The notes: generated by a model not told the origin, from the sequence alone. 64,000 bases of DNA from Candidatus Latescibacterota bacterium (GCA_963667175.2 CAXXXF010000002.1:256001-320000), one strand, 5' to 3'. Counted from the stretch's first letter, positions 10,004 through 35,234 are shown. Program-made: numbers and translations.

Positions 10004-10008
10004 GCACA

Positions 10009-10701: not shown

Positions 10702-10705
10702 TTCT

Positions 10706-12376: not shown

Positions 12377-12657
12377 GCGAACGACACTGGTATCTCTTCA
12401 GTTACGATATCCGCGAACCCAAACGGTGGCGTCGTGTGCACAAGATTGTAAACGGATATGGGGAGCGGTTGCAGTATTCGGTATACCGATGTCACTTGAC
12501 GCGGGCACAGATGGAACAGGCGAGGCATGAGCTGGAGAAGGTGATGGGGGAAGACGACGACCTACTTGTGATTCGACTCTCCCATCGCTGCAAGATCGTC
12601 GAGCGGACCGAAAGCAGAACGTGGACGGAGCCGCCGCCCAGGTTCGATATCCTTTAG
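12373..12657 (+). CDS. cas2: Cas2
   Basis: YLFSYDIREPKRWRRV..GYGERLQYSVY. Confidence 0.95.
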   Translation: MSERHWYLFSYDIREPKRWRRVHKIVNGYGERLQYSVYRCHLTRAQMEQARHELEKVMGEDDDLLVIRLSHRCKIVERTESRTWTEPPPRFDIL

Positions 12658-12908: not shown

Positions 12909-14961
12909 ACGCAGAAATCTTTGATGCCGAAAGGCGTTGAGCACTTCGAATGAGAATGACTCCACACGAAAAGATCATGAACGCAGAAATCTTTGATGCC
13001 GAAAGGCGTTGAGCACAAAGAAACATCGAAGACGTCCAGGCAAATGACCTTGACGCAGAAATCTTTGATGCCGAAAGGCGTTGAGCACGGGAATGTCATT
13101 GTGGATCGGCAGTGGTTGGTGTATACGCAGAAATCTTTGATGCCGAAAGGCGTTGAGCACTCGATCGGTTCGCCGTCGATCCAGATCCGGCGCGCCAGAC
13201 GCAGAAATCTTTGATGCCGAAAGGCGTTGAGCACCCGTTGCCTGTTCCACTGCGCTCCCCTTTCGCTGCCTACGCAGAAATCTTTGATGCCGAAAGGCGT
13301 TGAGCACCGCTCAGGAAGTCGATTGGCAACGTCGTAGAAGCACGCAGAAATCTTTGATGCCGAAAGGCGTTGAGCACAAGAACATCCAGTCCGCGTATCA
13401 GCACGATACATACGCAGAAATCTTTGATGCCGAAAGGCGTTGAGCACTTGCGCCTCTGCTGGTCCAGCCGCTGGCTCGTGAAGCACGCAGAAATCTTTGA
13501 TGCCGAAAGGCGTTGAGCACCTGGTTGCGCGTTCGCGGATCACACGCCAGGCCCGCCGACGCAGAAATCTTTGATGCCGAAAGGCGTTGAGCACATGGGA
13601 GTGGGCAAGAGGACAGCCCACCCCCATCACACGCAGAAATCTTTGATGCCGAAAGGCGTTGAGCACATACCGAGGGCATTCGCCGCTTCTCTTCCTGCGA
13701 GGTTACGCAGAAATCTTTGATGCCGAAAGGCGTTGAGCACAAGACATCTGGAATTTGAGCGGATTGACGCGGGCGACGCAGAAATCTTTGATGCCGAAAG
13801 GCGTTGAGCACTATCAGACGACGGCCGGCTCGAACACCTTTCCGAACGACGCAGAAATCTTTGATGCCGAAAGGCGTTGAGCACAGGAAAAATCAAATGT
13901 CTTTGTAATGAATGGTGGATACGCAGAAATCTTTGATGCCGAAAGGCGTTGAGCACTATCAGGAATTCAAGGAGCGATTTCTTGTCAATCAACGCAGAAA
14001 TCTTTGATGCCGAAAGGCGTTGAGCACAATGATGCAACACCCGGCGCAACAGGGGGAAGTTGCAAACGCAGAAATCTTTGATGCCGAAAGGCGTTGAGCA
14101 CATCATGGTTGTTCCCCTTGTATGTGTTTGTTGCGCTACGCAGAAATCTTTGATGCCGAAAGGCGTTGAGCACGCTTTAGCTGATGGTTCCCGTAGATGG
14201 GTAGAGATTGACGCAGAAATCTTTGATGCCGAAAGGCGTTGAGCACTCCGATTGCCAGTAGACAATCGACGGCGTTTCGATAACGCAGAAATCTTTGATG
14301 CCGAAAGGCGTTGAGCACTCACAATCGCGGCTGCCGGCGAATCGATCGGCTCGACGCAGAAATCTTTGATGCCGAAAGGCGTTGAGCACGTTAAGAGTTC
14401 GCGGAAAGCCTGCTTGGCCGCCACGCAGAAATCTTTGATGCCGAAAGGCGTTGAGCACCCGCGATCAACCTGGAAAACCGGCTGCGGGTCGACGCAGAAA
14501 TCTTTGATGCCGAAAGGCGTTGAGCACTTAGTTGTGTGGCAAGGGAATAAGCCCAAGCCCGAACGCAGAAATCTTTGATGCCGAAAGGCGTTGAGCACAT
14601 TGATTGCGAATTTCCACTTGATGCCCGCATCTTCGACGCAGAAATCTTTGATGCCGAAAGGCGTTGAGCACGTAAACAGCCTGGAAGATCATCCAGAATC
14701 AATACACTACGCAGAAATCTTTGATGCCGAAAGGCGTTGAGCACTCCGATTGCCAGTAGACAATCGACGGCGTTTCGATAACGCAGAAATCTTTGATGCC
14801 GAAAGGCGTTGAGCACGACCGCCCGCAGTTGCAGGACGGTGTCGCGCAGATCGACGCAGAAATCTTTGATGCCGAAAGGCGTTGAGCACAACCCACATCG
14901 CACACCATCTGTGCCTTTGTTGCCGACGCAGAAATCTTTGATGCCGAAAGGCGTTGAGCAC
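12909..14961 (+). CRISPR. CRISPR array: 29 repeats and 28 spacers (repeat A)
   Basis: 36-bp ACGCAGAAATCTTTGATGCCGAAAGGCGTTGAGCAC with 33-38 nt spacers; spacers 19 and 26 are identical. Confidence 0.98.
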
Positions 14962-14998: not shown

Positions 14999-15562
14999 TT
15001 GACGCAAAAGGAAATCATCGCACGTCGCCCAAGGCTCAAAGTTCCGGATGAATTTCAGGATGAATGGGTGACTTTGGCCGACGTCGGGTTCGACGGGGAG
15101 TGGGTATCGCCGATTCAGAAGAAATCGAACAGCAGGAAAGGTCCGGTACTCGTAGCGAAACACTGGTTCGATGCGGAATCCGTGAATCTGAATCGAAAAG
15201 TCCTCGAGTGCTTCGGGTATCTGCCCGGCAATCCGTTCAACCGCGCACTTGACCGGGTTCTTGCGTCTGTCGGTCTTGAGCGTGGGGACGTCTACATCAC
15301 GCAGGCGTGCCACTTCCTGCCGAAGAACGACAAGCGGAAGAGAGTGCCGTCCAAATTGATGAAGCTTTCCGTGGAGACGGTGACCCGCCATGAAGTTGAG
15401 GGTCGGCGGGTGATCGCCTTGGGTGGCGAGGCACAGATGGCCTTGACGCGTGCCAATATTGGCTTCCTGCCGTGCCCGCATCCGAGTTCATCGGTCGCTG
15501 GACGATTCGAGGAATTGGCAGAAGCGCTTCGCGATTCGGCGCCGTTCGTCAGCGCCAGTTAG
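14999..15562 (+). CDS. Uracil-DNA glycosylase superfamily protein
   Basis: DVYITQACHFLP, RRVIALGGEA and PHPS motifs; paralog at 20777. Confidence 0.7.
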   Translation: MTQKEIIARRPRLKVPDEFQDEWVTLADVGFDGEWVSPIQKKSNSRKGPVLVAKHWFDAESVNLNRKVLECFGYLPGNPFNRALDRVLASVGLERGDVYITQACHFLPKNDKRKRVPSKLMKLSVETVTRHEVEGRRVIALGGEAQMALTRANIGFLPCPHPSSSVAGRFEELAEALRDSAPFVSAS

Positions 15563-15564
15563 TG

Positions 15565-15772
15565 ATCTCCCCTCGCTTCGGCGGCCTGCCTGCGCAGCGG
15601 TGTGCGCTGCAGGCAGGGGGGAGCGGATTGAAACCTCTCCCCGATCCCGTCCTACGGATGCCGGTTGTCGTATCTCCCCTCGCTTCGGCGGCGGGAGCGG
15701 ATTGAAACTTGTGTGAGATGTCCTCAGGACAGTCGAGGCAGGATCTCCCCTCGCTACGGCGGGGGGAGCGGA
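15565..15772 (+). CRISPR. Mini-array of a second repeat family (repeat B): 3 repeats, 2 spacers
   Basis: ATCTCCCCTCGCTTCGGCGGCGGGAGCGGATTGAAAC (37 bp) at 15672-15708; the copy at 15565-15634 has a 33-bp insert and the copy at 15743 is degenerate; spacers are 37 and 34 nt. Confidence 0.85.
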
Positions 15773-15804
15773 ATTCCTTTAAAGGAACAAGAGGGAGTCA
15801 ACAC

Positions 15805-16740
15805 ATTAGGCGAATCGTACTCAGCCGCAAGGGATTCGACTCGAGCCGCAAGGGATTGGAATCGCCGAACGGCGGCGTGCCCAGTCCCATTTTCCCGGAC
15901 GGTCGAATCCTTTCCTTGCCTATTCCGACTCCCAGGCGCTATCCTCAATCTTCGAAACGGTTTGACGACATTGTGTGGGATGGTAGATCGCTATCTCCGC
16001 TCGTGGAGAGTCTTAGTAAAGTTAGAGGTGAGTGTTGGTGCCACTTGGATCCGGATATTCGAGCAGATGCGATCCAACGGCAACCTGGATGGCGGCCGGC
16101 GTTCGGACAGGTTGATGGATCTCAATCCCAATTGGCCAATCAGGAAGTCTCTCAGGGCGACCTGTTCCTGTTTTTTGGTACATTCCGGCGTGTCGAAGAT
16201 GATGGCAGTGGAGGTTGGCGTTACGTCAGAACCGCACCGAAAGTCCATATGCTTTTTGGCTGGTTACAAGTGCAGGAGGTTTTGTCGTTTCGTACTAATG
16301 CCGACTACGACCGGGCACTTTGCAAGTATCCGTGGCTGTCGGACCACCCACATCTCCACAGATCATTTACGGAACGTGCCCACAGTCTTCGCAAGCTTCC
16401 GAACAACACCGTCTACCTGTCGAACCCGAAGCTCAATATACGGGGAATAGACCTACCGGGAGGTGGCGTATTTCAGAGTGAACACGGCCGTATCGTATTG
16501 ACTGATCCAGAGGAGGTTGGAAAAGGAGCACCCTGTCGGCCTTCGTACTGGAGGCTGCCCGAGTGGTTCTGGCCGGACAGCGATTATCGCCGGTTACGAC
16601 GCAAAGTCATGTTGCGGCGGCGCGACACGGAGTGGATCCATGTCGCCTCGGGAGGTAGGGGACAGGAGTTCGTAGTTGACGTACACGACGTCTCAGATGC
16701 CGCAAACAAGTGGGTGCGCAATCTGTTCGAAGATGCTTGA
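15805..16740 (+). CDS. Nmad3-like (nucleotide-modification-associated) protein
   Basis: IVLSRKGFDS..GGVPSPIFPDG..LSLPIP, CHLDPD, GDLFLFFG; start uncertain (ATT at 15805 after an SD, or in-frame TTG/ATG inside the mini-array). Confidence 0.7.
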   Translation: MRRIVLSRKGFDSSRKGLESPNGGVPSPIFPDGRILSLPIPTPRRYPQSSKRFDDIVWDGRSLSPLVESLSKVRGECWCHLDPDIRADAIQRQPGWRPAFGQVDGSQSQLANQEVSQGDLFLFFGTFRRVEDDGSGGWRYVRTAPKVHMLFGWLQVQEVLSFRTNADYDRALCKYPWLSDHPHLHRSFTERAHSLRKLPNNTVYLSNPKLNIRGIDLPGGGVFQSEHGRIVLTDPEEVGKGAPCRPSYWRLPEWFWPDSDYRRLRRKVMLRRRDTEWIHVASGGRGQEFVVDVHDVSDAANKWVRNLFEDA

Positions 16741-16767
16741 GCGGCACCAAGAGTCCGAGAGGTCGCG

Positions 16768-16803
16768 GCGCAGAAATCTTTGATGCCGAAAGGCGTTGAG
16801 CAC
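16768..16803 (+). CRISPR. Solitary repeat A
   Basis: 35/36 match to the array repeat, 1.8 kb downstream of the array. Confidence 0.92.
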
Positions 16804-16957
16804 GTGATAAAAGAGGCGAGTTGCGATTCTTGGCGATGCAGGCGTCTGGAATTTGAGGGATTGTAGTGGGTGATAGATCGTCTTTCCTGTGGAGTTTACC
16901 GTTCAATAAGAATCAGTCGATCCACGCAATGCAGTCTTAGTGATAAGGGGGGAGCCA

Positions 16958-17116
16958 ATGTCGACACACAAGCTGGAGATCGTACAGGTACTGGAAAAGT
17001 ATCCTGACGGGGCGCTGGTCGAGGAGTTGATGAAAGAAAGGCGGCGGATAAGGAAGTCCGAGACCGGATTGACGCTGCTCGCGTTTTTGCCCGCCAGTGG
17101 GACATCGTACGGGTAG
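16958..17116 (+). CDS. Small hypothetical protein (52 aa), possibly a remnant
   Basis: GGGGGAG SD then ATG; MSTHKLEIVQVLEKYPDGALVEELMKE... Confidence 0.4.
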   Translation: MSTHKLEIVQVLEKYPDGALVEELMKERRRIRKSETGLTLLAFLPASGTSYG

Positions 17117-17198
17117 ACCATTGTACTTTTCAACTGATGCTGTGAATTGGCAGGTGCGTCACCGTTAGGTAACCATGCACAGGTATTGTGCCCACTAA

Positions 17199-17286
17199 GG
17201 AGCGGTTTGAAATATCAAAACTCCAATGCAGGTGTTCAGTGACCCGTGGGAAATCGAGAATCTTCCATCAGAACAAGGATTGAAAA
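17199..17286 (+). CRISPR. Hybrid unit: repeat-B 3' remnant, 36-nt spacer, repeat C
   Basis: GGAGCGGTTTGAAAT, a spacer 30/36 identical to 23565-23600, then ...GAGAATCTTCCATCAGAACAAGGATTGAAA. Confidence 0.7.
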
Positions 17287-17503
17287 TACCCGTGGACAGG
17301 GTCTATTGATTCACTACAGAAGGCTTAGAAAGTACGAACGGTCTGGTTCCTGACGACGCTTTATGCTTAAAGTGCGGAGCAATCGGTTACGGTCAGTGCA
17401 CATGCCCTACACCGGCCCATTGCTGCGACTGAACGGCTCCAGGGGATCTACATTGCACCTGTGCCGTAGGACAGGGACCCGTGTGGTCAGACGAGGAGTA
17501 AAT

Positions 17504-18094
17504 ATGCTGATTTTAATTCTGCTCTCCGTGGGCTTAGCCCAGGCGGAGCTGCCAGAAGGTTTTTCTACCTGGGACTTGTCGATCAAAAAGGATCCCATCG
17601 AAGAAACGACAACTATACGGCTGACCCTGCATGGTGAGGCATTGGTGTATGTTAAGGGTCAGCGATATGGTAGAGAGTATGATCATTTTGGGGCGATCTC
17701 CTTTAGTTGTCATTTGTCCAGATATGCAAGCACAGTAGAAATGGGTGTATTGACCCATAAATCGTTCATATATGGTGTAGAGGAAGGGGACGCGGTGGAG
17801 CCAGCGTTCATGATTATGCGATATGATAGTAAAACGCCGAAGAAGATATTCGGATGGAAAACGACAAGGGTGAAAGGTCGGGATCTGCTTCTACCACCTG
17901 AGGGATTTATGAACGCATTCGTAGATACATTACGTAAAGGCGGACATTATGAATTGTTGTTAAGATCGGAATCGCCGTTTACTGGTAAGCGATGGACAAT
18001 GAAATTTAACGTCACTCACAGTAGACGAAACGTGATGAACTTTCTTAGAAAGTGTAAGGCTCACCGGAGGGATGATCACGGCTACAACTACTGA
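17504..18094 (+). CDS. Secreted hypothetical protein
   Basis: GAGGAG SD; signal peptide MLILILLSVGLAQA; lower GC. Confidence 0.7.
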   Translation: MLILILLSVGLAQAELPEGFSTWDLSIKKDPIEETTTIRLTLHGEALVYVKGQRYGREYDHFGAISFSCHLSRYASTVEMGVLTHKSFIYGVEEGDAVEPAFMIMRYDSKTPKKIFGWKTTRVKGRDLLLPPEGFMNAFVDTLRKGGHYELLLRSESPFTGKRWTMKFNVTHSRRNVMNFLRKCKAHRRDDHGYNY

Positions 18095-18188
18095 GCATTT
18101 GAATAGCGCCATATTTCTTCCTGCTCAAGCAGTTGAAGATATAGAGAAGGATGATTGGTATCGCGGACACCTGCGAACGCGCACGTAA

Positions 18189-18225
18189 CCCGTTGAGAAT
18201 CTTCCATCGGAACAAGGGTAGAAAC
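18189..18225 (+). CRISPR. Solitary repeat C
   Basis: CCCGTTGAGAATCTTCCATCGGAACAAGGGTAGAAAC. Confidence 0.7.
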
Positions 18226-18280
18226 TTGCCCAAACCAGAAAACGGGCGACAAAGTAGCTGATGGGGCTCTCTACTTAGAT

Positions 18281-18598
18281 TTGGACGGTGGAGAATTAGG
18301 CAAAACGGTCTTGTCCGTCGAAGGCGGAAACATCCGACCGTCGGATTTACAAGACCTGCAAGGGGTGTTACATTCCGATCCAGATGCCCGCCTTTCCGGT
18401 TTCCTTTCGTTGAATGAACCCACAAAGGCAATGGGAAAGGCTGTCAGTTCAGATGGACAATGGAGTTACAAGGGCGAGACCTACGACAAAATTCAGTTGC
18501 TCACCGTTCGTGACGTGGTCGACGGGAAGCGGTTGTTCCAGACGCCTACCAGCCTGAAATACAAGGATTACCACTTGCAGGAAACGATCCGGTTTTAG
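18281..18598 (+). pseudogene. C-terminal fragment of an Mrr-like restriction endonuclease domain (as found in MTase-REase fusions)
   Basis: SVEGGNIRPSDLQDLQG..GFLSLNEPTKAM..YDKIQLLTV resembles that domain; N-terminal part missing. Confidence 0.55.
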
Positions 18599-18686
18599 AT
18601 CTCCAATTCGGGAAGAAGACATATGCGACCGAATCTCGCGCAGGTCAAGTCGTTTATTCTATCCGAGTTTCCTGAGTTACTGCCAG

Positions 18687-18944
18687 ATGGCCATTGAAGA
18701 CGGATGGTCTTTTTTCTATAAAGAGATAAGAAAAGGACGCGACTCCACCCGAATCGCCCGCGTCAAGCAGGCGAGCTCAAACAGTAAAATAGATTTCAAA
18801 CCTGCTGTTACTGCCAGAATAACGGGAGATGAACGATTGAGGGTTGAGATAACAACTGACTGGGAGAACGAGATTCGCAACGTAACCGAACGGGAGTTGG
18901 AACTTTGGGAGTGCCATTTCGGGAAACAGGATTGGCAATTTTAA
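18687..18944 (+). CDS. Hypothetical protein, possibly frameshifted from an ATG near 18623
   Basis: ORF with plausible composition; a short upstream ORF has an SD-like sequence. Confidence 0.4.
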   Translation: MAIEDGWSFFYKEIRKGRDSTRIARVKQASSNSKIDFKPAVTARITGDERLRVEITTDWENEIRNVTERELELWECHFGKQDWQF

Positions 18945-18990
18945 ACCCAAAACGCACCAGCCCGTCTCTTAATTTCGTCCTGCGCGCGTG

Positions 18991-19028
18991 ATTTCCCCTC
19001 GCTTCGGCGGGGCACGAGGGATTGAAGC
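18991..19028 (+). CRISPR. Solitary degenerate repeat B
   Basis: ATTTCCCCTCGCTTCGGCGGGGCACGAGGGATTGAAGC. Confidence 0.7.
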
Positions 19029-19153
19029 TAGTCCACGGGGGCGATCCGTAAGGGTATCGGGTCGCCCCCTACGTGGTGCGTGGGCTGAAAAAGCGCCGCC
19101 ACGCTTATTTACAGGTAACCCGTTTCCACTCCATACTTCGACAAGGAGGTCCG

Positions 19154-19741
19154 ATGGACACGAGTGAATTGTACGAATTTAGCCAGGGTCTGGAGTCGCT
19201 GATCCGAAAACCGACCGATCTGCGACCCTTCGTATGTGAGGGTTCGCCTCTTGCATGTGATGCGTTCCTCGTGGGTATCAATCCCGCGAGCGAAATGTCG
19301 GATGACTTCTGGGATTTCTGGTCGGACAGTTATGGATTCGACAAGAGCGCGTGGTTTGAGAAGTACAAGGAGGAGCGAAGAACTCGCCCGCTGAAACTCG
19401 GAAGGAAGAGAAGGAATGAAGTAAGCAACACACGCAGAATCATCGAGGAGGTCGTTTTGGGCGCCAATCCCGTCAAATGTCTTGAGACGAACATATACGC
19501 GAAAGCGACGAAACAGGCATCGGACCTGGACGAGCAAAACAGAATCACGGCGCCCTTCGACTATCTCTTGCGCGAGATAGCGCCGAAGTTGGTGATTGCC
19601 CACGGCAAGGACGCTGCCGAGTACCTGCAAGCGCAGGACCTACCGTGCAAACTCAGGTGTGTCAAACATTTCCGACTCTGGTCCAAGCAGAACGCGCGAG
19701 ATCTAGGGTTGAGTATTCGCAGGTATTGTGAGGGAGAGTAG
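19154..19741 (+). CDS. Divergent UDG-superfamily protein
   Basis: FLVGINPA motif 1, LETNIY, PKLVIAHGKDA, C-terminal KHF; AGGAGG SD. Confidence 0.6.
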   Translation: MDTSELYEFSQGLESLIRKPTDLRPFVCEGSPLACDAFLVGINPASEMSDDFWDFWSDSYGFDKSAWFEKYKEERRTRPLKLGRKRRNEVSNTRRIIEEVVLGANPVKCLETNIYAKATKQASDLDEQNRITAPFDYLLREIAPKLVIAHGKDAAEYLQAQDLPCKLRCVKHFRLWSKQNARDLGLSIRRYCEGE

Positions 19742-19887
19742 CGGGACCGCGCGTGAAAACCCGCCTCGGGTTCACAGCCCATTCGCTTCGCCGGTTGACG
19801 TCCAAAGTCGCTAGGCGAGCCACGCCCGCTGAGATTCCTGCATAAGTAACGAGGTTTGACCGGAACGAAGGATGAAGGGGTCTATGG

Positions 19888-20751
19888 ATGATCAAGATAG
19901 TCAGTTGGAACATCGACAACCGAATGCAGCCGTGGTGCGAACTGGTGCGGATGGCGCAGGACGGCGAGGCCGACCTGGCGCTCCTGCAGGAAGCGGGTGG
20001 CCCGCCAGGCGACCTTGTACATCTGGTCGAATACGATGATGCGGTGTTTTGGAACCGCCAACTTTACGACCGATGGCCACTGGTCGTGAAGTTGTCCGAT
20101 CGAATAGCAGTCGAACATTACCGACAGGTGCCGCCGATCAGCGAACTTGGTATGAGCGACATTGGCGTGAGCGGTATCGGGACCATCGCCGCCGCGAGGG
20201 TGATCCCTTACGAAAGTGAAGATGAGGCCTTCGTCGCTGTCTCCATGTACGCGCGCTGGCTGAAGCCGCATCCGTCTACGGATAGCCCATGGAAAGTCGG
20301 TTACTCGGATGCGTCGGCACATCGAGTTATTTCGGACCTATCGGCTTTCATCGGTCACACCAACCCGTCCAGACACAGGATTCTGGCGGCAGGCGACCTG
20401 AACATGTTTTACGGGGCAACCGGCACGAGACTGTCACTGCCGGAACGTGAGCGCACGGTCTGGGATCGAATGAAATCGCTCGGACTGGAATTTTTGGGAC
20501 CGCAGGTTCCTTGCGGACGACCCGCACCGACTGCGCCGGACGACGTACCTTGCGATACGAAGAATGTACCGACGTACTACAAGGTTGGAGAATGCCCGGA
20601 AAAGGCGACGAATCAATTGGACTACGCATTTGCGTCGCACGGCTTCCACGAAAGGGTTTCAGTACGGGCGATGAACGAGATTTGCGAATGGGGATGCAGC
20701 GACCACTGCAGGCTGATCATTGAGGTAAAGACGAACGCCGATAGCGCCTGA
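19888..20751 (+). CDS. Endonuclease/exonuclease/phosphatase (EEP) family protein
   Basis: SWNI, DLALLQE, AGDLN, LDYAF, SDH. Confidence 0.85.
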   Translation: MIKIVSWNIDNRMQPWCELVRMAQDGEADLALLQEAGGPPGDLVHLVEYDDAVFWNRQLYDRWPLVVKLSDRIAVEHYRQVPPISELGMSDIGVSGIGTIAAARVIPYESEDEAFVAVSMYARWLKPHPSTDSPWKVGYSDASAHRVISDLSAFIGHTNPSRHRILAAGDLNMFYGATGTRLSLPERERTVWDRMKSLGLEFLGPQVPCGRPAPTAPDDVPCDTKNVPTYYKVGECPEKATNQLDYAFASHGFHERVSVRAMNEICEWGCSDHCRLIIEVKTNADSA

Positions 20752-20776
20752 CAGAGTTGCGCCACGAGGTGAAACC

Positions 20777-21316
20777 ATGGAACGAGAGGACATAATCGAA
20801 CGTCGCCGAAGCCTTCAAGTTCCGGACGAATTTCAGGATGAATGGATGACATTAGCCGACGTCGGGTTCGACGGTGAGTGGGTATCGCCAATTCAGAAGA
20901 TATCGAACAGCATGAGGGGTCCGGTACTCGTAGCAAAGCACTGGCTCGACGCCGAATCCGTGGATCTGAATCGGGAAGTCCTCGAATGCTTGGGATATTT
21001 GCCTGGCAACCGATTCAATCAGTCTCTTAATCGGGCCCTGGCAAATGTCGGGAAAGCACGTGGGGACGTCTACATTACACAGGCGTGCCACTTCCTACCG
21101 AAGGACGACAAGCGGAAGCGAGTGCCGGCCGAATTGATGAAACTTTCCGTGAAGGAGGTGACCCGCTATGAAGTTGAGGGTCGAAGGGTCATTGCGTTGG
21201 GTGGTGAGGCTCAGTTGGCCCTGGAGCGTTTCGGTATTGATTTTCTGCCGTGCGCGCATCCGAGTTCATCGGTCACTGGACGATTCGAGGAATTGGCAGA
21301 TGCGATTCGAGATTAG
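20777..21316 (+). CDS. UDG-superfamily protein (paralog of 14999)
   Basis: Colinear and highly similar to 14999-15562. Confidence 0.7.
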   Translation: MEREDIIERRRSLQVPDEFQDEWMTLADVGFDGEWVSPIQKISNSMRGPVLVAKHWLDAESVDLNREVLECLGYLPGNRFNQSLNRALANVGKARGDVYITQACHFLPKDDKRKRVPAELMKLSVKEVTRYEVEGRRVIALGGEAQLALERFGIDFLPCAHPSSSVTGRFEELADAIRD

Positions 21317-21341
21317 GCGCCGTTCGTGGGCTCTATCCCAA

Positions 21342-21451
21342 ATCTCCTCTCGCTTCAGCGGTGGGAACGGATTGAAACGCGTCGCGCCGCTCGCAGATGG
21401 AGTGGATGGCGGCGCCCAGCGAGAGCCTTCCATCAGAACAAGGATTGAGAC
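21342..21451 (+). CRISPR. Hybrid unit: repeat B, 36-nt spacer, repeat C
   Basis: B at 21342-21378 (37 nt), spacer 21379-21414, C CCCAGCGAGAGCCTTCCATCAGAACAAGGATTGAGAC at 21415-21451. Confidence 0.8.
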
Positions 21452-21456
21452 TGCTT

Positions 21457-21633
21457 ATGCCGCAAGATATCCGAAATCGACAGGAACCGGCCGCCTTCCA
21501 GGTCTGGCATCCGGATGGGACGCCCTTTTCCGATGATGACTATCGAAAGGCCGGAATGCCTGTACCAACCCCCGAGCAGATCGCTCACTGGGCTGAGATG
21601 GACCGAAGTTTCGCCGATCCGGATACTGACTGA
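21457..21633 (+). CDS. Repeat-C-linked microprotein (58 aa), copy 1
   Basis: MPQDIRNRQEPAAFQVWHPDGTP...YRKAG..PTPEQIAHWAEMD; three standalone copies plus one fused domain. Confidence 0.7.
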   Translation: MPQDIRNRQEPAAFQVWHPDGTPFSDDDYRKAGMPVPTPEQIAHWAEMDRSFADPDTD

Positions 21634-21653
21634 GGCTTGATCGGATACATCCG

Positions 21654-21689
21654 CCCAGAGAAATCGTCCATCAAAGAATGGATTGAAGC
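21654..21689 (+). CRISPR. Degenerate repeat C
   Basis: CCCAGAGAAATCGTCCATCAAAGAATGGATTGAAGC. Confidence 0.55.
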
Positions 21690-22522
21690 TGCCCAACGGG
21701 CTGCGTCCGGACGGAGGACCTGAACTTGTGACTGGCGCCAACTACGACACTCCCTGGTGGCCGCTTATATACGACCAGTGGAACGAGCGGGGCGATAGGC
21801 AGCAGACGCACCAGCGCGAGTTCCAATTCTACAGCATGCAGCTCACCGGAGAGGCGGGTCCGATCCTCGAAACGGCTTGCGGCACTGGTTCGATTCTGCT
21901 TCGCCTTTGGCGCCACGGCGTTGACATAAGGGGTTTCGATTGCGCCGCAGGGATGCTGGCCGTTCTGCGGCGCAAGGCAGCGGCTCTGGGGCTGGGCGAT
22001 ATCGACCGCCGCGTTGGCTGTCAAGACCTCGTTGACTTCTGCTACGACCAGTCCTTTGCAGCCATTCTGATTCCGGCCAGTTCGTTCATGCTCTTACCCA
22101 CACAGTCGGCCCAAATCACCTGTCTCGAACGCATTCGCGCGCATATGGCACCTGGCGGGCGGCTACTGATGAATTTCTACATCCCGTCGCTTGCCGACGA
22201 CCTGCTTGCCCACATCGCCCCGTCCCCGTCGCTGGAAACATTCGGCGAATTCATCCACCCCCAAACAGGCCGCCAAATCAGCGTCCGCTTCAAAAAGATC
22301 GTCGATCTGGGCGAGCAGACTGAGCACTACGAGTGGTTTTTTCTCTACGACGGAGAAACTGCAGCCGTGCCCATGACTGCGCGGTGGATCTACAAAGAAG
22401 AATTTCAGCTATTGCTGCGTCTGGCAGGATTTAGCCGCTGGCGGCTTTCTGGCACCCACGACGGCCAGCCGTACACAGGTTCAAAGGAGATTGGGACGAC
22501 GTACTGGGTCGTCGAACGCTGA
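21683..22522 (+). CDS. Class I SAM-dependent methyltransferase
   Basis: ILETACGTGS motif I; the true start may be GTG at 21728. Confidence 0.88.
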   Translation: MKLPNGLRPDGGPELVTGANYDTPWWPLIYDQWNERGDRQQTHQREFQFYSMQLTGEAGPILETACGTGSILLRLWRHGVDIRGFDCAAGMLAVLRRKAAALGLGDIDRRVGCQDLVDFCYDQSFAAILIPASSFMLLPTQSAQITCLERIRAHMAPGGRLLMNFYIPSLADDLLAHIAPSPSLETFGEFIHPQTGRQISVRFKKIVDLGEQTEHYEWFFLYDGETAAVPMTARWIYKEEFQLLLRLAGFSRWRLSGTHDGQPYTGSKEIGTTYWVVER

Positions 22523-22851
22523 GCGGATCAGTACCTGCAAACGGTGGTGACCGTTTGGTAAGCTGGTTAGGGTCTGCCAGCACCGTTGGTTGAAAGACGA
22601 TAGGTATTGTTCGCTACTGCATCAGGGGATACTTCAAGGCGATTCAGTTCGCCACGGCGAGACACAATCGACTGGGTTCCCTGCCTGGCCAATGCGTGAT
22701 GGCGACCCGCCGGAAATCTGGTTTCAGCTGGACAAAGGACGACCTCTCCAACATGATCGACAAGACTTTGAAGTGGGACGTGGATTGAAGCTGCTGCGGG
22801 GTTTATCCCAGGGGACGGACTGTATCACGCGACACAGGAGGAGATGACCCA

Positions 22852-23538
22852 ATGTGCGGTCGATTTACCCAGATGATGTCCTGGGGTGAGCTCCATTGGC
22901 TTTACAGCCTGTCCGAACACTCGGAATCGCTGGAGTTGCAATCCCGCTATAACGGCGCGCCGACCCAGGATTTCGCGGTCTGCCGCCTGGACGGAAACGG
23001 CAACCGGGAGATCGACAGGCTGCAATGGGGTCTGGTACCCGCGTGGTCCAAAGACGTCAGAATCGGCGCCCGCATGATCAACGCACGGGCCGAAAGCGTA
23101 CACGAGAAACCGGCATTCGGCGCCGCCTTTCGGGCGCGCCGGTGCCTGGTGCCGGCCGACGGGTGGTTCGAGTGGCAAGCAGCAGGGAGCGCCAGACAGC
23201 CCTACTTCCTGGCGCTCGCGGACGGGTCGACGCTGTCGTTCGCCGCGCTGTGGGAACGCTGGGATAGAGGCGGCGCCGCCCTGGAGTCATTTACCATCAT
23301 CACCACGGCCGCCGACGAAGCGCTTTCCAACGTCTACCATCGCCAGCCTGCCGTCATCAATCCCGAACACTTCTCCGTCTGGCTCGACAACGAATCATCC
23401 GCGGCGACGTTGCTGGATCTGGTTCGCTATCCTCGCGCGGGACCGTACGAAATACGCGCCATCGGCGCTCGCGTAAACAATGTCCGAAACGACGATCCGG
23501 ACGTTCTCCTGCCCACGTCCCAGCAGCGCCTGTTCTAA
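22852..23538 (+). CDS. SRAP/HMCES/YedK abasic-site protein
   Basis: MCGRF catalytic N-terminus, INARAES, RCLVPADGWFEW, HHRQP. Confidence 0.95.
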   Translation: MCGRFTQMMSWGELHWLYSLSEHSESLELQSRYNGAPTQDFAVCRLDGNGNREIDRLQWGLVPAWSKDVRIGARMINARAESVHEKPAFGAAFRARRCLVPADGWFEWQAAGSARQPYFLALADGSTLSFAALWERWDRGGAALESFTIITTAADEALSNVYHRQPAVINPEHFSVWLDNESSAATLLDLVRYPRAGPYEIRAIGARVNNVRNDDPDVLLPTSQQRLF

Positions 23539-23546
23539 GTCCACAC

Positions 23547-23637
23547 GGGAGAGCGGATTGAAACGACAAAACACCAGTGCCGGTGGTCAGTGACCCGTGG
23601 CCCAGTGAGAGTCTTCCATCAGAAAAAGGATTGAGAC
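23547..23637 (+). CRISPR. Hybrid unit: repeat-B 3' half, 36-nt spacer, repeat C
   Basis: GGGAGAGCGGATTGAAAC, spacer 23565-23600, then CCCAGTGAGAGTCTTCCATCAGAAAAAGGATTGAGAC. Confidence 0.75.
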
Positions 23638-23642
23638 TGCCT

Positions 23643-23837
23643 ATGCCGCAAGATATCAGAAATCGCCAGGAGCCCGCCGCCTTCCAGTGCTGGCATCCGG
23701 ACGGTACCCCTTACTCGCCGGCAGACTATCGAAAGGCCGGGATGCCTGTCCCGACCCCCGAGCAGATCGCCCACTGGGCTGAGATGGACCGAATATTCGC
23801 CGATCCGGTGAGAATTGTCAATCAGAACAAGAAGTGA
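23643..23837 (+). CDS. Repeat-C-linked microprotein, copy 2
   Basis: Near-identical to 21457; the stop codon lies inside the downstream degenerate repeat C. Confidence 0.7.
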   Translation: MPQDIRNRQEPAAFQCWHPDGTPYSPADYRKAGMPVPTPEQIAHWAEMDRIFADPVRIVNQNKK

Positions 23838-23912
23838 AACAGCGAATCCGTCCCAATCCTCGCCTGGACGATCGATGTCTCCCCTCGCTTCGGCCGGGGA
23901 GCGGATTGAAAC
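23804..23912 (+). CRISPR. Hybrid unit: degenerate repeat C, 36-nt spacer, repeat B
   Basis: TCCGGTGAGAATTGTCAATCAGAACAAGAAGTGAAAC, spacer 23841-23876, then GTCTCCCCTCGCTTCGGCCGGGGAGCGGATTGAAAC. Confidence 0.7.
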
Positions 23913-23991
23913 GTCGCCGCAATGTCCCCGCGCCCTTGTGAAAAGGCGAAGTCGACGGGGCGGTACGTGGCGCCAATGGAGGTGAATAACA

Positions 23992-25257
23992 ATGCTATTC
24001 AGACTTACTCGAGATGGAGATAAGAACGGTTTTCAGCCATATGTCGAAACGTCAGCATCAGACTTGCAACTCACCGAAAAGAACCTGGAAACCTGGATGG
24101 CGCTGCACCCTGAGTTGCTTTTTGGAAGCGAGCAAGTCCTTGTGATCAGCCAGTCAGTCGCAGGTCAGAGCATGGGCGACATTCTGGCGTTAGACGCCGA
24201 TGGATGTTTAGTGATCGTCGAGATTAAGCGGGACTGGTCCGATAGAGCGACGGTTGGCCAAATCCTGGAATATGCGGCCGAAATGACCGGGAAATGTTAT
24301 GAGGACCTGGAGAAACTGCATCACAGCTACTGGATCAAACAACACTCGAATTGTAATTATGCATCCTTGCTGACGCGGTTTCAAACCCTGACCGACAACC
24401 ACGAATGTGATGAGGACGATATTCCGAGACGTCAAAAAGGTCATCGAATTCTAGTCGTCGCACCGGCTGCTGACGAGGGCCTGATGAGGATTGTAGAGTG
24501 GCTTAGAGAGTATGGTGTGCCGATCAGCTTTGTGCCTTTCACGATCCATGCAGATACGGAAAGCAAAGACATCTTGCTGGAGCTAGAGCCGCTCCCCGAG
24601 GCTCAGTCGTTCGGAGAAATGGTAGACAGTCAGGAATGGCGTGGAGATTGGATCTTTAATACGAACGAAACTTACGCCCCAGGCGCATACCGAAAGATGT
24701 TTGATCAACGCGTAATTGCTATCCACGGATATGAGAGCGGTCCAGCCAATCTGACAGGTAGTGCCGAAGGGCAGCGGGTATTCGCTTATGTAAATCGCAA
24801 AGGTGTCCTGGCGGTGGGTCGTATCGTTAACGGCCAACCGGTTTCGGGGACAACCGTGTTTGGCGAGGAACGCGAGTTCCATGTGAAGGTCGTCTGGGAG
24901 ACAATCGTGGACGATGACAGGGGAATGACATTACGGGACGTCAGCGAAGAAAAAGGTTACAATCTCCCTGTTCGATGTGTCTTTGCTCGCATGAATCGTC
25001 CCGATGCCGCCGATTGGATCGCCGACGAACTGCAAAGCAGGATGGATAAACGTAATCCTGGACGTAGAGGCTCAAGATTCTCAGACCCTATCGTCGGCCG
25101 CGCCTGGCATGCCGACGGCACGCCTTTTGGTGAGGAAGACTACAGGAGAGCGGGCTTGTATGTCCCCACCGAGGAACAATTGGCCGCGTGGGAGAAGGCG
25201 GATGCCGAACGCGACGCGCTACCGCCCGGTGAGAATCTACCGCCAGAACAGGAATGA
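23992..25257 (+). CDS. NucS/EndoMS-like PD-(D/E)xK nuclease with a putative PUA/EVE-like domain and a C-terminal microprotein domain
   Basis: EKNLETW, DILALD..LVIVEIKR..VGQILEYA; FAYVNRKGVLAVGRI; C-terminal WHADGTP..DYRRAG..PTEEQLAAW. Confidence 0.75.
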   Translation: MLFRLTRDGDKNGFQPYVETSASDLQLTEKNLETWMALHPELLFGSEQVLVISQSVAGQSMGDILALDADGCLVIVEIKRDWSDRATVGQILEYAAEMTGKCYEDLEKLHHSYWIKQHSNCNYASLLTRFQTLTDNHECDEDDIPRRQKGHRILVVAPAADEGLMRIVEWLREYGVPISFVPFTIHADTESKDILLELEPLPEAQSFGEMVDSQEWRGDWIFNTNETYAPGAYRKMFDQRVIAIHGYESGPANLTGSAEGQRVFAYVNRKGVLAVGRIVNGQPVSGTTVFGEEREFHVKVVWETIVDDDRGMTLRDVSEEKGYNLPVRCVFARMNRPDAADWIADELQSRMDKRNPGRRGSRFSDPIVGRAWHADGTPFGEEDYRRAGLYVPTEEQLAAWEKADAERDALPPGENLPPEQE

Positions 25258-25260
25258 AGC
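25225..25260 (+). CRISPR. Degenerate repeat C overlapping the nuclease stop codon
   Basis: CCCGGTGAGAATCTACCGCCAGAACAGGAATGAAGC. Confidence 0.55.
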
Positions 25261-25404
25261 AGCAGTGGTCGGTGGTCCGTGTCAGTGACCAGTCCGAAAG
25301 CCGGATGATGTACGGGAAGGTGCATGCGCGCCTGCGGATGCCGGCTTCCAGCTCAATTCCGTGGGTCTTCAAAGCCGAAATGAATCCGGGGAGGCAGGGA
25401 AACC

Positions 25405-26277
25405 ATGAAAATCGTTTTCAGTCGCAAGGGATTCGACTCGACCCGCAGGAGATCTGAATCGCCGAACGGCGGCGTGCCCAGTCCCATCTTTCCGGACGGC
25501 GCCGCCCTGTCCCTGCCAATTCCGCAACACGGAAGTCGGACGCGCTACGGGGACGTACAGTGGCGCGGCGAGTCGATCGGTCCGATTGTGGAGTGCTTGA
25601 CTGAGGGTCGAGTGAAGCAAGGTGATTGTTGCCATCTCGACCCCGATCTGAACGCCGATGCCCTTGCGCGCTTGCCCGGATGGCGGCCGGCCTTCGGGCA
25701 GTCACAGGCCGCTCAGAGCCATCTGAAAAACGAGGGTGTCGAACCCGGGGACCTCTTTCTGTTCTTCGGCTGGTTCCGCGCCGTGGAACCCGGCAAAGGA
25801 GGCATGTGGCGGTACGTTTCAGACGCCCGGGACGTACACAGGCTGTTCGGTTGGCTCCAGGTTTCCGAGGTCGTGCCCGTCGGGGCGGATCTCGCCCGCG
25901 CCCGGTCCGAGCGGCCGTGGCTATCCAGGCATCCGCATCTGAATAGGGATAGGGACAACAACACGATCTACATCGCAAGGGAGAAACTTGACGTCGAGGG
26001 CGTGACTGCGCGGAGCGACGCAGGCCTGTTTTCCGGCAACGGCGACCGATTCACACTGACGGCGCCGGGTTCCAGGACCCGCTCCAATTGGCGGTTGCCT
26101 TGGTGGTTCTATCCCTCAAACGGTCGTCCAACGCTCAGCTACCACGGCAATGGGGATCGCTGGCAGCACGCGAAACCGTGGGTATACCTGGACACGGTCG
26201 GCATCGGGCAGGAGTTCGTGTTCGACGCCGGCGGGATCCCGGAAGCAAACGTCTGGTTGCGAGAACTGTTCAGGTGA
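25405..26277 (+). CDS. Nmad3-like protein
   Basis: MKIVFSRKGFDS, CHLDPD, GDLFLFFGWF, GQEFV. Confidence 0.75.
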   Translation: MKIVFSRKGFDSTRRRSESPNGGVPSPIFPDGAALSLPIPQHGSRTRYGDVQWRGESIGPIVECLTEGRVKQGDCCHLDPDLNADALARLPGWRPAFGQSQAAQSHLKNEGVEPGDLFLFFGWFRAVEPGKGGMWRYVSDARDVHRLFGWLQVSEVVPVGADLARARSERPWLSRHPHLNRDRDNNTIYIAREKLDVEGVTARSDAGLFSGNGDRFTLTAPGSRTRSNWRLPWWFYPSNGRPTLSYHGNGDRWQHAKPWVYLDTVGIGQEFVFDAGGIPEANVWLRELFR

Positions 26278-26588
26278 AGGGTTGTGCCGAGTATCGGCAG
26301 ACGGAACAGAAAGGCATCGCTGGAAATCTCGGCGGGAGAACAGATATGCGGCGAAGCAACGAAAAGCGCAATCGTCTTGCTGCACTCGCCCGCCATCTCC
26401 GGGACAATGTTCCATCCGGATTCCGGGGGGCGGCGACTATCATTCGGGCGTTTATGAATGCGGATTCGTATCGCCGTATACAAAGTTGGCAGGCAATCTA
26501 CACGCATGTGTCGCAAATTGCGACACATGCCAGCACCTGCGTCGTTCGTTGGCGCATTCGCTGCCAACAAACAGGCCGCACGGTACCC

Positions 26589-26616
26589 GTAGGGGCGACC
26601 GGCCGGTCGCCCCTAC
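26589..26616. repeat. GTAG-type REP palindrome; related copies near 19036, 27512, 30201, 32648, 36591 and 37527
   Basis: GTAGGGGCGACCGGCCGGTCGCCCCTAC. Confidence 0.8.
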
Positions 26617-26721
26617 GCTGCCAGAGGCTCGATGGAAAGCCTAAATCCGATCCGCCGGAGGACCTCAGGCGTGAGGTCGCGGCCGGCATGATCGCGGCAG
26701 GGGAGATGTTTGAATCGAAAT

Positions 26722-30173: not shown

Positions 30174-30224
30174 CGGGTTGTGCCCTGGCCCCGGGTACCT
30201 GTAGGGGCGACCGGCCGGTCGCCC

Positions 30225-30536
30225 CTACAGCTCTGCCAGTGGCTCGATGGATAGCCTGAAGCCCAGGCTGTTCAGGATCTTCTCCATCGTGTCCAGGCGA
30301 GGATTTCCGTCTCCGGAAAGCGTCTTATACACGTGGGCACGGTTCAGGTTTGCCTTCCGCGCCAATTCTCCCAGCCCGCCTTTTGCGGTCGCGACGTCCT
30401 TGAGCGCAAGCAGAAAGGCCGACCTGTCGTGATCCCTGGCGTATTCCTCCAGCGCGGCCTCGAGATAGGTGCGAGCGCGGTCCGGATCACTGAGGAATTC
30501 GAAATGGTGTTTTTCAAATGGGACCGATGGTTCCAT
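30225..30536 (-). CDS. Addiction-module antidote (HTH, HI1420-like)
   Basis: FLLALKDVATAKGGLGELA..LNRAHVYKTLSGDGNPRLDT. Confidence 0.85.
   Translation of the reverse strand: MEPSVPFEKHHFEFLSDPDRARTYLEAALEEYARDHDRSAFLLALKDVATAKGGLGELARKANLNRAHVYKTLSGDGNPRLDTMEKILNSLGFRLSIEPLAEL

Positions 30537-34476: not shown

Positions 34477-35234
<758 letters not shown>

Follow-up and report, generated by a model that had tools for sequence, protein, structure and literature searches.

In the portion of Shmakov et al. 2023 (PMC10120712) considered here, a mini-array is two repeat-like sequences separated by 15-60 bp in the neighbourhood of a CRISPR-cas locus; stand-alone repeats are explained there by the tendency of repeats to recombine, and the mini-arrays that accompany type III loci are regarded as degraded repeats that do not function. 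CreTA, in the sections of PMC8501985 drawn upon, has a spacer-like sequence between two dissimilar repeat-like sequences, with a small gene adjoining: the repeats of CreA are degenerate versions of the resident one, its spacer base-pairs with the promoter of the toxin, and the small gene is a mini-ORF RNA toxin. Racr and viral SRU, as presented in the part of PMC10651486 cited, are solitary repeats outside arrays, also with small genes adjoining. Two further precedents, each taken from part of its source, concern exchange and insertion: crossing-over at repeats of a single family rearranges the content of arrays (Kupczok et al. 2015, PMC4524480; Ou and McInerney 2022 preprint), and array-targeting Tn7-like transposons bring cargo DNA inside CRISPR arrays (PMC11837452).

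We analysed 64,000 nt of DNA of a Candidatus Latescibacterota bacterium (GCA_963667175.2, CAXXXF010000002.1:256001-320000; the window) with four units in which a repeat of one family (B) and a repeat of another (C) stand 36 nt apart, within the range given for mini-arrays. Unlike those mini-arrays, the units combine two array families, neither of them the resident system's, and lie within a 22-kb series of genes with repeats between them, a layout found again across the genus. They differ from CreTA in that B and C belong, as intact members, to other families, the spacers gave no promoter match, and the small gene, c4, encodes a conserved 58-aa protein. In contrast to Racr and viral SRU, they are chromosomal and syntenic and had no copy in the viral collections; their repeats match the arrays of sister species and not the repeats of this genome's systems. 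Crossovers at repeats are a shared feature, but here different families are involved and gene-sized inserts are exchanged; Tn7-like elements differ in that the island has no Tns genes and its cassettes are single genes with no bounded transposon. Our preferred explanation, which we hold to be probably correct, is that the units are junction relics of register-preserving recombination between repeats sharing GGATTGAAAC. They belong to a gene-shuffling island where whole genes, c4 above all, occupy the places of spacers between CRISPR repeats.

Resident systems and repeat families

The genome has two CRISPR systems. One, of type I-MYXAN, lies in the window, with genes for Cas6/Cmx6, Cas3, Cas8a1/Cmx1, Cas7/DevR, Cas5/DevS, a Cas4-Cas1 fusion and Cas2; the other is of type I-G and has a repeat ending ATTGAAGC.

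4238-12657, + strand: resident cas operon, type I-MYXAN (Pfam and NCBIfam)
12909-14961, + strand: CRISPR array A, 29 copies of a 36-nt hairpin repeat ending GTTGAGCAC

B and C differ from both resident repeats, and A and C, aligned by eye, have in common only a GAATCTT-like stretch. Both are genuine CRISPR repeats belonging to families of bona fide arrays: each is 37 nt long with an array period of about 73-74 nt in relatives, they share their last 10 nt, GGATTGAAAC, and sister species carry B or C arrays of 13-142 copies at the same locus. The C pattern was found in 23 of the 41 genomes searched, in ten of which it forms arrays of 22-142 copies with a period of ∼74 nt; B arrays occur in four genomes of the same genus (14-37 pattern matches each). 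The C repeat is unstructured (-2 kcal/mol).

The genome under study has neither a B nor a C array, and all its B matches and six of its seven C matches fall within the window, where the C copies agree with the consensus of the relatives at 22-32/37 positions. The genome (95% complete) yielded no PF05107 Cas7, a protein that accompanies the B array in relative G007 (by Pfam) and the C array in G002 (by blastp clustering only); the only cas systems seen here are I-MYXAN and I-G, neither of them cognate to B or C. The window copies, truncated or mutated members of known array families with no array or cas genes of their own here, have the character of orphan, degenerate remnants. In this genome type I-MYXAN with repeat A has probably taken the place of the cas modules found with B and C arrays elsewhere, leaving the units orphaned.

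Four mixed-repeat units

All four B/C pairs reported in the initial annotation are present on the + strand, and the interval is 36 nt in each.

17199-17286, + strand: unit 1, B 3′ tail ending at 17213, interval 17214-17249 (36 nt), C 17250-17286
21342-21451, + strand: unit 2, full B 21342-21378, interval 21379-21414 (36 nt), C 21415-21451
23549-23637, + strand: unit 3, B 3′ tail ending at 23564, interval 23565-23600 (36 nt), C 23601-23637
23804-23912, + strand: unit 4, C 23804-23840, interval 23841-23876 (36 nt), B 23877-23912

The description of the first three as B-36nt-C has to be qualified: unit 2 has a full B (33/37, with C at 32/37), while unit 1 retains only the last 14-15 nt of B and unit 3, which lies directly 3′ of the stop codon of the SRAP gene, the last ∼16 nt. 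In unit 4 C scores 29/37 and the B copy, at 36 nt, is one base short. A canonical CRISPR array consists of tandem copies of one repeat with unique spacers of like length between them; the units, with two different repeats in each and no cognate cas genes found in the genome, are not of this class.

The pattern is not due to chance. GGATTGAAAC occurs 16 times in the window at no more than one mismatch, against 4.77 ± 2.13 expected, a number reached in 0 of 100 shuffles. A scan with B and C consensus sequences built solely from the relatives' arrays gave 16 matches of at least 23/37, all 16 on the + strand and all but one between 15.6 and 36.2 kb, whereas 40 shuffled windows averaged 0.7 matches and never had more than 2. 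Independent short-read contigs from run X1, whose sample may be the source sample, cover unit 2 (20798-21780) and units 3 and 4 (22745-25659), the B-spacer half of unit 1 lying outside their coverage. As RNA, whole units fold no better than shuffled sequences (z of -0.48, +0.29 and -0.17). The units are genuine remnants of two CRISPR array families, which recombination most likely brought together.

A module shared by units 1 and 3

The two spacers reported as 30/36 identical are those of units 1 and 3, which over their whole length (91 nt) are 80% identical and are copies of one B-heptamer-C module. A third copy lies nearby:

17430-17503, + strand: decayed third copy of the unit 1/3 module

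Its spacer part agrees with that of unit 3 at 26/36 positions, and its C remnant (17490-17503) reads GAGGAG, seven bases before the ATG of a 196-aa ORF (17504-18094). Two homologues of the module, spacer included, are present in relative G010, where the interval is 24 nt, 12 nt shorter. Because of this difference in length, we take the shared 'spacer' to be a heptamer-repeat sequence and not an acquired one, as the initial annotation had cautioned when noting its heptamer periodicity. The same annotation had named a lack of small RNAs together with descent from a single decayed duplication with unconserved spacing as the outcome that would speak against its reading. Units 1 and 3 do show the second half of this; units 2 and 4 do not, their 36-nt spacers being unrelated, and that of unit 2 is unique to it. 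The units are not freshly acquired spacers, and most likely they are not working guides. One module was probably spread by later segmental copying, giving units 1 and 3 and the decayed third copy, and probably also inherited or exchanged between species.

In two species the module stands directly 5′ of four different genes. This placement resembles that of a reused 5′ element and counts against reading the module as a relic.

The repeat-separated gene island

A same-strand island of ∼22 kb (15.0-37.6 kb) contains the units. Its + strand genes, set apart from one another by complete or truncated B and C repeats, include those for UDG-like proteins, Nmad3, an EEP nuclease, a methyltransferase and SRAP; all Pfam-supported genes from 14999 to 26277 are on the + strand.

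14999-15562, + strand: UDG-superfamily gene 1 (Pfam)
15565-15779, + strand: B mini-array of three B repeats, with spacers of 37 and 34 nt
16768-16803, + strand: solitary A repeat (35/36)
18189-18225, + strand: solitary C repeat (31/37)
18991-19028, + strand: B-like repeat ending ATTGAAGC
19825-19861, + strand: strongly degenerate C repeat (22/37) between UDG-like and EEP genes
21653-21689, + strand: degenerate C repeat (24/37) that closes the cassette of c4 copy 1
25225-25261, + strand: degenerate C repeat overlapping the end of a 421-aa gene
36615-37553, - strand: conserved flanking gene of cluster c7, distal end of the variable island

UDG gene 1 is paralogous to 20777-21316 (82% over 595 nt). 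Together with the B mini-array and the first Nmad3 gene, it occupies a 1806-nt gap between the last repeat of array A and the solitary A. In the mini-array, which contains the only same-family neighbours among the B and C repeats of the window, a 33-nt palindromic insertion interrupts the first repeat and the third is truncated at its 3′ end. Homology of the first Nmad3 cassette to relatives G013, G012 and G002 ends at 16771-16772, where these relatives have a degenerate C repeat; the C repeat at 19825-19861 is homologous to the one preceding the EEP gene in G007. Some cassette junctions have no repeat, e.g. 25328/25359.

The initial annotation had passed over the B mini-array, the solitary A, the third module copy and the repeat copies at 18189, 18991, 19825, 21653, 25225 and 36146. 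The copy at 18991-19028 has the ending of the type I-G repeat, and B-like repeats might be processed by that system, or C by the resident Cas6, a possibility counted against regarding the repeats as orphan relics.

Co-directional, mostly promoter-less genes with a short conserved repeat between them and an order shuffled among relatives make the island look like an integron cassette array. Integrons are recognized by the tyrosine recombinase IntI with its attI site and by attC sites that follow the cassettes. Here the separators are CRISPR repeats located 5′ of genes, and there is neither IntI nor attI nor attC structure; an integron is ruled out by the absence of an integrase domain among the 35 window ORFs scanned and by separators devoid of attC-like inverted structure.

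Genes could also have been put between the repeats by an array-targeting transposon or insertion sequence, the mixed units being its scars. Cyanobacterial Tn7-like elements do insert at a fixed place in CRISPR spacers, according to the part of PMC11837452 cited, and the C array of G002 is interrupted by genes that encode rve, Mu-transposase C-terminal and DDE_Tnp_1 domains. Yet among the ORFs scanned in 14999-37553 we found no transposase and no TnsA/B/C or TnsD domain, the only transposases being two IS110 copies (805-3795) upstream of the cas operon, and insertion does not explain why B and C are exactly one spacer apart. We regard this origin as very improbable.

A small gene in the place of a spacer

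The 58-aa c4 genes form a family whose members, in most copies, are placed between C repeats like a giant spacer.

21457-21633, + strand: c4 copy 1, 58-aa ORF starting 6 nt after a C repeat
23643-23837, + strand: c4 copy 2, its last codons running into the next C repeat (unit 4)
36146-36364, + strand: C repeat (36146-36182) and c4 copy 3 (ATG at 36185)

The C-terminal domain of the 421-aa gene (25042-25203) is c4-like as well. We counted 29 c4 copies in 10 genomes, all on the repeat strand; most have a C repeat 2-47 nt upstream and another 3-70 nt downstream. Among the exceptions are copies with the nearest upstream repeat more than 1 kb away, copies with a B neighbour in place of C (G011, G014) and one copy that lacks a downstream repeat. 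In G011 a B array of 20 copies is followed in tandem by a C array of 76, and both end in c4 and a C repeat.

C repeats flanking c4 are 75-77% identical pairwise, against 62-68% for the c4 coding DNA (106 divergent cassette pairs). Conservation of the repeat above that of the gene implies selection, gene conversion or repeated capture, at least in the case of C; faster decay would be expected of purely neutral relics, so this conservation counts against plain relics.

It is conceivable, though on balance unlikely, that the C repeats and the B-heptamer-C module have been retained as working 5′ elements of the cassettes, the mixed units being leaders and not guides. The island would then be transcribed from the array side, with the repeat giving a ribosome-binding site (AAGGA) or a Cas6-type cutting site, so that the message of each cassette would begin a few bases before its start codon. 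The strand and proximity of the C repeats at c4, their conservation upstream of it, the common end of both G011 arrays, the uniform strand of the Pfam-supported genes and the GAGGAG of the decayed C remnant agree with such a role. Many C copies, however, are badly decayed (22-25/37), repeat-free junctions exist, and the resident Cas6 goes with another repeat, A.

Spacer matches and viral copies

Searches of the genome with the spacers gave no matches beyond 13-18 nt and no target above chance; units 1 and 2 gave nothing above shuffled controls. The spacer of unit 3 agrees with 17449-17484, a stretch shortly before a gene start, at 26/36 positions (best of 30 shuffled spacers, 23), and for that of unit 4 there are exact 15-nt matches at 30291-30305 and 32738-32752. 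Such partial matches would be expected if the units were crRNA-like regulators of the CreA or mini-array type, pairing with cas or cargo promoters and repressing them via Cascade; the 36-nt pairs fit the definition of Shmakov et al., and the portion of PMC10120712 cited describes cargo-gene shuffling hotspots beside type I-D mini-arrays. We nevertheless consider such regulation improbable. The 26/36 match belongs to the decayed paralogous module copy, B tail and C remnant included, and seed positions 1, 5, 6 and 7 are mismatched; the unit 4 matches are mid-spacer with E about 0.1. No promoter of a cas or cargo gene showed partial spacer complementarity that includes the seed, the repeats are not derived from either resident repeat, and in the G010 homologues the interval is 12 nt shorter. 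The earlier proposal of crRNA-like regulators needing two processing enzymes found no support either, with no target beyond chance and no PF05107 Cas7 in the genome.

Racr/SRU-like decoys, also proposed initially, might have arrived with an anti-CRISPR gene (c4) on a mobile element recombining with the array; a solitary repeat beside a small, fast-diversifying, multi-copy gene does resemble the phage repeat/anti-CRISPR pairing (in the parts of PMC10651486 and PMC10120712 cited). We hold this to be extremely unlikely. The phage, plasmid and viral collections gave no copy of the units: the C pattern was found in 0 viral contigs of IMG/VR, unit plus c4 matched none of 50,697 phage and 72,556 plasmid records, c4 matched no PHROG family, and viral contigs yielded two weak c4-like matches of 20 residues. 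Moreover, the island is chromosomal and syntenic across the genus, the 35 ORFs scanned contain no integrase, and G009 and G011 hold large intact C arrays together with c4.

Relatives and probable recombination at repeats

Comparable islands were present in all 10 relatives fetched. These MAGs of the genus, titled Candidatus Latescibacterota or Gemmatimonadota, share one locus, a type I cas operon with the main array, and in every genome examined a variable island of 10-25 kb lies downstream of that array, whose repeat depends on the species (A here, B or C in relatives). Cas4/Cas1 and the array are upstream and the c7 gene is downstream in G002, G007, G012, G013 and G014, where it bounds the variable island distally as it does here; the c6 gene is also present in G010b. 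The relatives' scattered repeats are on the array strand, except for two borderline matches.

A search for mixed-repeat units in other genomes, as proposed initially, gave nine further or equivalent pairs (four B-to-C and five C-to-B, 61-74 nt apart) in 5 of the 11 loci examined (G000, G007, G010, G011 and G013), compared with 175 CC, 100 BB and 28 AA same-family pairs. As the relatives are kin, this recurrence partly reflects shared descent.

Recombination between arrays, as suggested in the initial annotation, fits the B and C arrays of sister species at this locus, the shared last 10 nt, the recurring mixed neighbours and the variable C junctions. A crossover within a B and a C repeat would keep the repeat-spacer register, and B and C would then end up exactly one spacer apart. 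Homology blocks end at repeats in 12 of 90 cases, against a random mean of 5.0 (p about 0.005), and population variants break at repeats too: contigs of related strains join 19754 to 17256, 25235 to 23612 and 21644 to 17256, all at C repeats.

Mixed-repeat units and their gene context

By reading 16900-24200 and by running a repeat finder we recovered all four mixed-repeat units proposed in the initial annotation. Each of them is on the forward strand and joins repeats B and C, two CRISPR repeat families forming arrays in relatives, with an interval of 36 nt. The units are situated in an island, a same-strand run of genes studded with repeats (∼15.0-37.6 kb of the window), beyond the resident type I-MYXAN array of repeat A.

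Features of the locus (window coordinates; +, forward strand)
4238-12657: type I-MYXAN cas operon, upstream of the units: Cas6/Cmx6, Cas3, Cas8a1/Cmx1, DevR, DevS, Cas4-Cas1, Cas2
12909-14961: array of repeat A, 29 repeats, directly after the cas operon
15565-15779: B mini-array, three repeats
16768-16803: solitary A repeat
Unit 1, +: last 14-15 nt of B, ending at 17213; 36-nt interval; C at 17250-17286
Unit 2, +: full B at 21342-21378; 36-nt interval; C at 21415-21451
Unit 3, +: last ∼16 nt of B, ending at 23564; 36-nt interval; C at 23601-23637
Unit 4, +: C at 23804-23840; 36-nt interval; B at 23877-23912, one base short
18189, 18991, 19825, 21653, 25225, 36146: further C or B copies
21457-21633, 23643-23837, 36185-36364: copies of c4, a 58-aa ORF that follows units 2 and 3
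25042-25203: c4-like sequence

Units 1 and 3 were aligned by the repeat finder at 80% identity over 91 nt, and it is their spacers that share the 30/36 identity noticed earlier. The end common to both repeats, GGATTGAAAC, was observed 16 times with at most one mismatch, against 4.77 ± 2.13 expected. A scan of the window with consensus sequences of B and C that were derived from arrays of relatives only (threshold at least 23/37) gave 16 matches, all on the forward strand and 15 of them between 15.6 and 36.2 kb, while shuffled windows produced a mean of 0.7. An assembly artefact was rejected, as the same architecture recurs in single-contig relatives and independent contigs cover units 2 to 4.

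From 14999 to ∼26300 all Pfam-supported genes are on the forward strand: three of the UDG superfamily, two Nmad3, an EEP nuclease, a methyltransferase, an SRAP peptidase and a NucS-like protein, with additional Nmad3 copies downstream of 26300. Whole or partial repeats separate the island genes. UDG-1, the B mini-array and Nmad3-1 occupy the 1806 nt from the final repeat of array A to the solitary A repeat.

Origin of repeats B and C

Repeats B and C, both 37 nt long, are real CRISPR repeats, though foreign to this genome's own arrays. The genome (18 contigs, 95% complete) had no B or C array, and all of its B matches and six of its seven C matches fell in the window. The C pattern was present in 23 of the 41 genomes searched (own genome included), ten of them having arrays of 22-142 copies; B arrays, with 14-37 pattern matches, were present in four same-genus genomes. 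In relative G007 the B array adjoins Cas7 (PF05107), Cas3, Cas4, Cas1 and Cas2; in relative G002 the C array adjoins Cas5 (PF09704), and its other neighbours share blastp clusters with Cas7, Cas3 and Cas4/Cas1 of G007. A PF05107 protein was looked for in the window's own genome and not found. Repeat B forms a stable hairpin (-14 kcal/mol); repeat C is unstructured. Inside the hairpin of the first repeat of the B mini-array there is a 33-nt perfect palindromic insertion (15585-15617).

Contig 13 of this genome carries a second cas locus (∼48.2-70 kb; fetched loci L025 and L026), of type I-G, with genes for GSU0053, GSU0054, two Cas3, Cas1 and Cas2 and a short array whose 36-nt repeat ends in ATTGAAGC; the B-like copy at 18991-19028 of the window has the same end. 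A solitary C repeat (28/33) was seen on contig 3 at 320282-320314 (L027, 10282-10314), far from CRISPR loci and with no adjacent c4.

The island in relatives

We fetched loci of ten relatives (G002, G005 and G007-G014) and mapped nine of them, G005 serving as a source of the C consensus only. All nine carried 10-25 kb of genes with solitary or paired B or C repeats between them, nearly all in array orientation; this stretch follows the main B or C array or, if no long array was found, the cas-proximal side. One and the same gene (36615-37553 in the window) bounds the island in G002, G007, G012, G013 and G014. Genes for Nmad3, EEP, UDG-like, DUF4432, S51 peptidase and c4 were common as cassettes, in changed order. 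Looking for mixed-repeat units across genomes, as had been advised, showed them to be recurrent, with four B-to-C and five C-to-B pairs one spacer apart in the window's own genome, G007, G010, G011 and G013. In G011 an array of 20 B repeats is followed by one of 76 C repeats.

Degenerate B-like sequences (24/37) were seen just upstream of cas2 in both G007 (L009, near 5501) and G013 (joined L013+L014, reverse-complemented, near 4831); these could be stand-alone repeats within the cas operon.

The c4 family

We found 29 copies of c4 in 10 genomes, all on the repeat strand. In most cases there is a C repeat 2-47 nt upstream and another 3-70 nt downstream; in a few exceptions the nearest upstream repeat is >1 kb off, the neighbour is B instead of C or a downstream repeat was not found. 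The relative G009 has the arrangement C-c4-C-c4-C-c4-C, and in G011 c4 with a C repeat stands at the end of both arrays. Fourteen of the 41 genomes searched had c4 (12 of 14 same-genus relatives, one of two genomes from another genus, and the genome of the window itself), with every match in a CRISPR-adjacent island, while none was found in 19 genomes of the neighbouring family despite the C arrays there. In other phyla a c4-like domain is present without flanking repeats.

Across the c4 alignment four residues (G, P, Y and P) are invariant and five more (W, H, D, T and W) nearly so; the family pattern is WHxDGTP...DY..AG.PVPT..Q...W. No family match was obtained in Pfam, NCBIfam or PHROGs and no usable match in the ESM Atlas. 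The AlphaFold model is of moderate confidence (pLDDT 71.6) and matched no PDB fold at E 0.001 or better. With E 0.001 as the limit, a profile search retrieved 87 representatives, of which many are long repeat proteins that share a short motif only; longer homologues showed no informative fusion. Having no known function and turning up only in the CRISPR-adjacent island of its 14 host genomes (of 41 searched), c4 is thus a concrete target for experiment.

In divergent cassette pairs the C repeat upstream of c4 is 75-77% conserved and the c4 coding DNA 62-68%, which argues that these C copies, at least, are maintained.

The spacer shared by units 1 and 3

The caution that the spacer common to units 1 and 3 may not have been acquired was well founded: this sequence is no acquired spacer, being built of CNGTG-type heptamers (four copies here, as read by eye), and its length is not fixed. 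Two B-spacer-C units of relative G010 can be aligned with both units, across the spacer as well; the interval there is 24 nt, 12 nt shorter than here. A local scan found a third copy of this module (B tail, heptamer spacer, C) at 17430-17503, in which the B tail and C survive as remnants; its spacer part matches that of unit 3 at 26/36, the best of 30 shuffled spacers reaching 23. The C remnant is GAGGAG, seven bases 5′ of the ATG of a 196-aa ORF. This remnant is among the features in favour of the main rival explanation, rather unlikely in our view, in which C repeats and the B-heptamer-C module have been retained to serve as cassette leaders.

For units 2 and 4 no relation of the spacers to each other or to other sequence was found. 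The alternative of a single decayed duplication with unconserved spacing applies to units 1 and 3, as copies with a 24-nt counterpart in G010, and not to units 2 and 4 with their unrelated spacers.

Comparison with known systems

The initial annotation had also suggested crRNA-like regulatory RNAs or Racr/SRU-like decoys. The recommended spacer searches against the genome and viral databases gave neither a credible target nor viral copies: in blastn-short searches with six spacers against the own genome we observed, besides the units themselves, only matches of 13-18 nt (E 0.1 or higher), and the sole match among all 48 fetched loci was of 16 nt of the unit 4 spacer, in G012 (E 0.002). Whole-unit RNA folded no better than shuffles. 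The units have the spacing that serves as a criterion for regulatory mini-arrays (PMC10120712), but differ from these in repeat origin and in lack of target complementarity. For the decoy reading, searches of phages, plasmids and viral contigs likewise returned no copies of the units; Racr/SRU (PMC10651486) differ in having a mobile-element location. Array-targeting Tn7-like elements are a known route of cargo into arrays (PMC11837452), but no Tns genes are present in the window's island. Taken jointly, regulator, decoy and transposon-scar readings appear unlikely.

Positions 15-29 of the unit 4 spacer have exact 15-nt matches on the reverse strand at 30291-30305 and 32738-32752, in two paralogous blocks of the island, and the 16-nt match in G012 is in the orthologue there; with E ∼0.1 per genome these may be chance matches.

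A mobile-element origin was rejected: the unit with c4 had no match among phages and plasmids, and the C pattern was found in no viral contig. Two weak partial matches of c4 to viral contigs were seen. An integron was rejected as well, there being no integrase and no attC structure. The literature searched contained no description of genes regularly placed between CRISPR repeats, nor of arrays mixing two repeat families.

Recombination at repeats

Comparing the island with its paralogues or relatives, we found that the ends of homology blocks form 90 clusters, of which 12 coincide with repeats, more than the random mean of 5.0 (p ∼0.005). The 5′ edge of a C repeat is the precise starting point of several blocks (19824, 21404-21414, 23599-23600, 25224 and 36139-36146), and others stop at such an edge (16771, 23808 and 36149). 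Contigs of related strains from public runs join 19754 to 17256, 25235 to 23612 and 21644 to 17256, each junction being at a C repeat; as these are metagenome contigs matched at 90% likeness, the junctions are supportive rather than decisive. In two public runs the contigs are longer by 236 letters at 22744/22745, where the methyltransferase gene is followed by the SRAP gene; this insert equals one C-c4 cassette in size.

Recombination between arrays, proposed at the outset as one origin of the units, is the best-supported reading. A crossover within two repeats would preserve the repeat-spacer register and leave B and C exactly one spacer apart, and we infer this to be the simplest route to such an arrangement. 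The mixed units would afterwards have been copied together with their cassettes. They are, in our judgement, probably orphaned junction relics of register-preserving recombination between two array families.

One could also speculate, though we consider it improbable, that CRISPR repeats in this genus have been taken over as gene-cassette borders, making an integron-like system built on CRISPR repeats. Protein-coding genes, c4 and larger ones of DNA-repair or modification type, would then occupy the places of spacers; repeats would mediate copying, swapping and reordering of cassettes; transcription would read through from the array promoter, and at the repeat cassettes would be set free or become translatable; among the reusable cassette leaders would be the B-heptamer-C module. 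Candidate routes of first gene entry are oversized Cas1-Cas2 integration and plain recombination.

Arrays are usually regarded as pure spacer records with one repeat. At this locus arrays of different repeat families replace each other and recombine at one site, repeats long outlast their matching cas genes, and the space between CRISPR repeats can house entire genes, which multiply and are exchanged there. Should the repeats be working cassette borders or expression signals, CRISPR repeats would have gained a new use, and growth of defence islands beside CRISPR loci would be explained; should the units be only relics, the locus would still be a clear natural record of repeat-family turnover and a caution for software that calls arrays or dates spacers. 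The genus-wide island, with c4 placed between repeats, is of more value than the four units that led to it.

Other elements of the locus

An Rfam scan of 12000-38000 gave no CRISPR-DR family at gathering score; its only matches were group II intron models, with RNA domains inside the island on the forward strand at 34503-34640 and 35088-35234 (RF02003, 102 bits; RF00029, 46 bits). Just upstream of the cas operon there are two tandem IS110-family transposase genes on the reverse strand (805-2145 and 2455-3795), with a 300-nt stretch at the gene ends 100% identical between 745-1044 and 2395-2694. A GC-rich hairpin element with the core GGGGCGACCGGCCGGTCGCCCC has four copies (26564-26617, 30176-30229, 32623-32676 and 36566-36619), situated within larger 300-nt repeated blocks in the repeat-poor half of the island.
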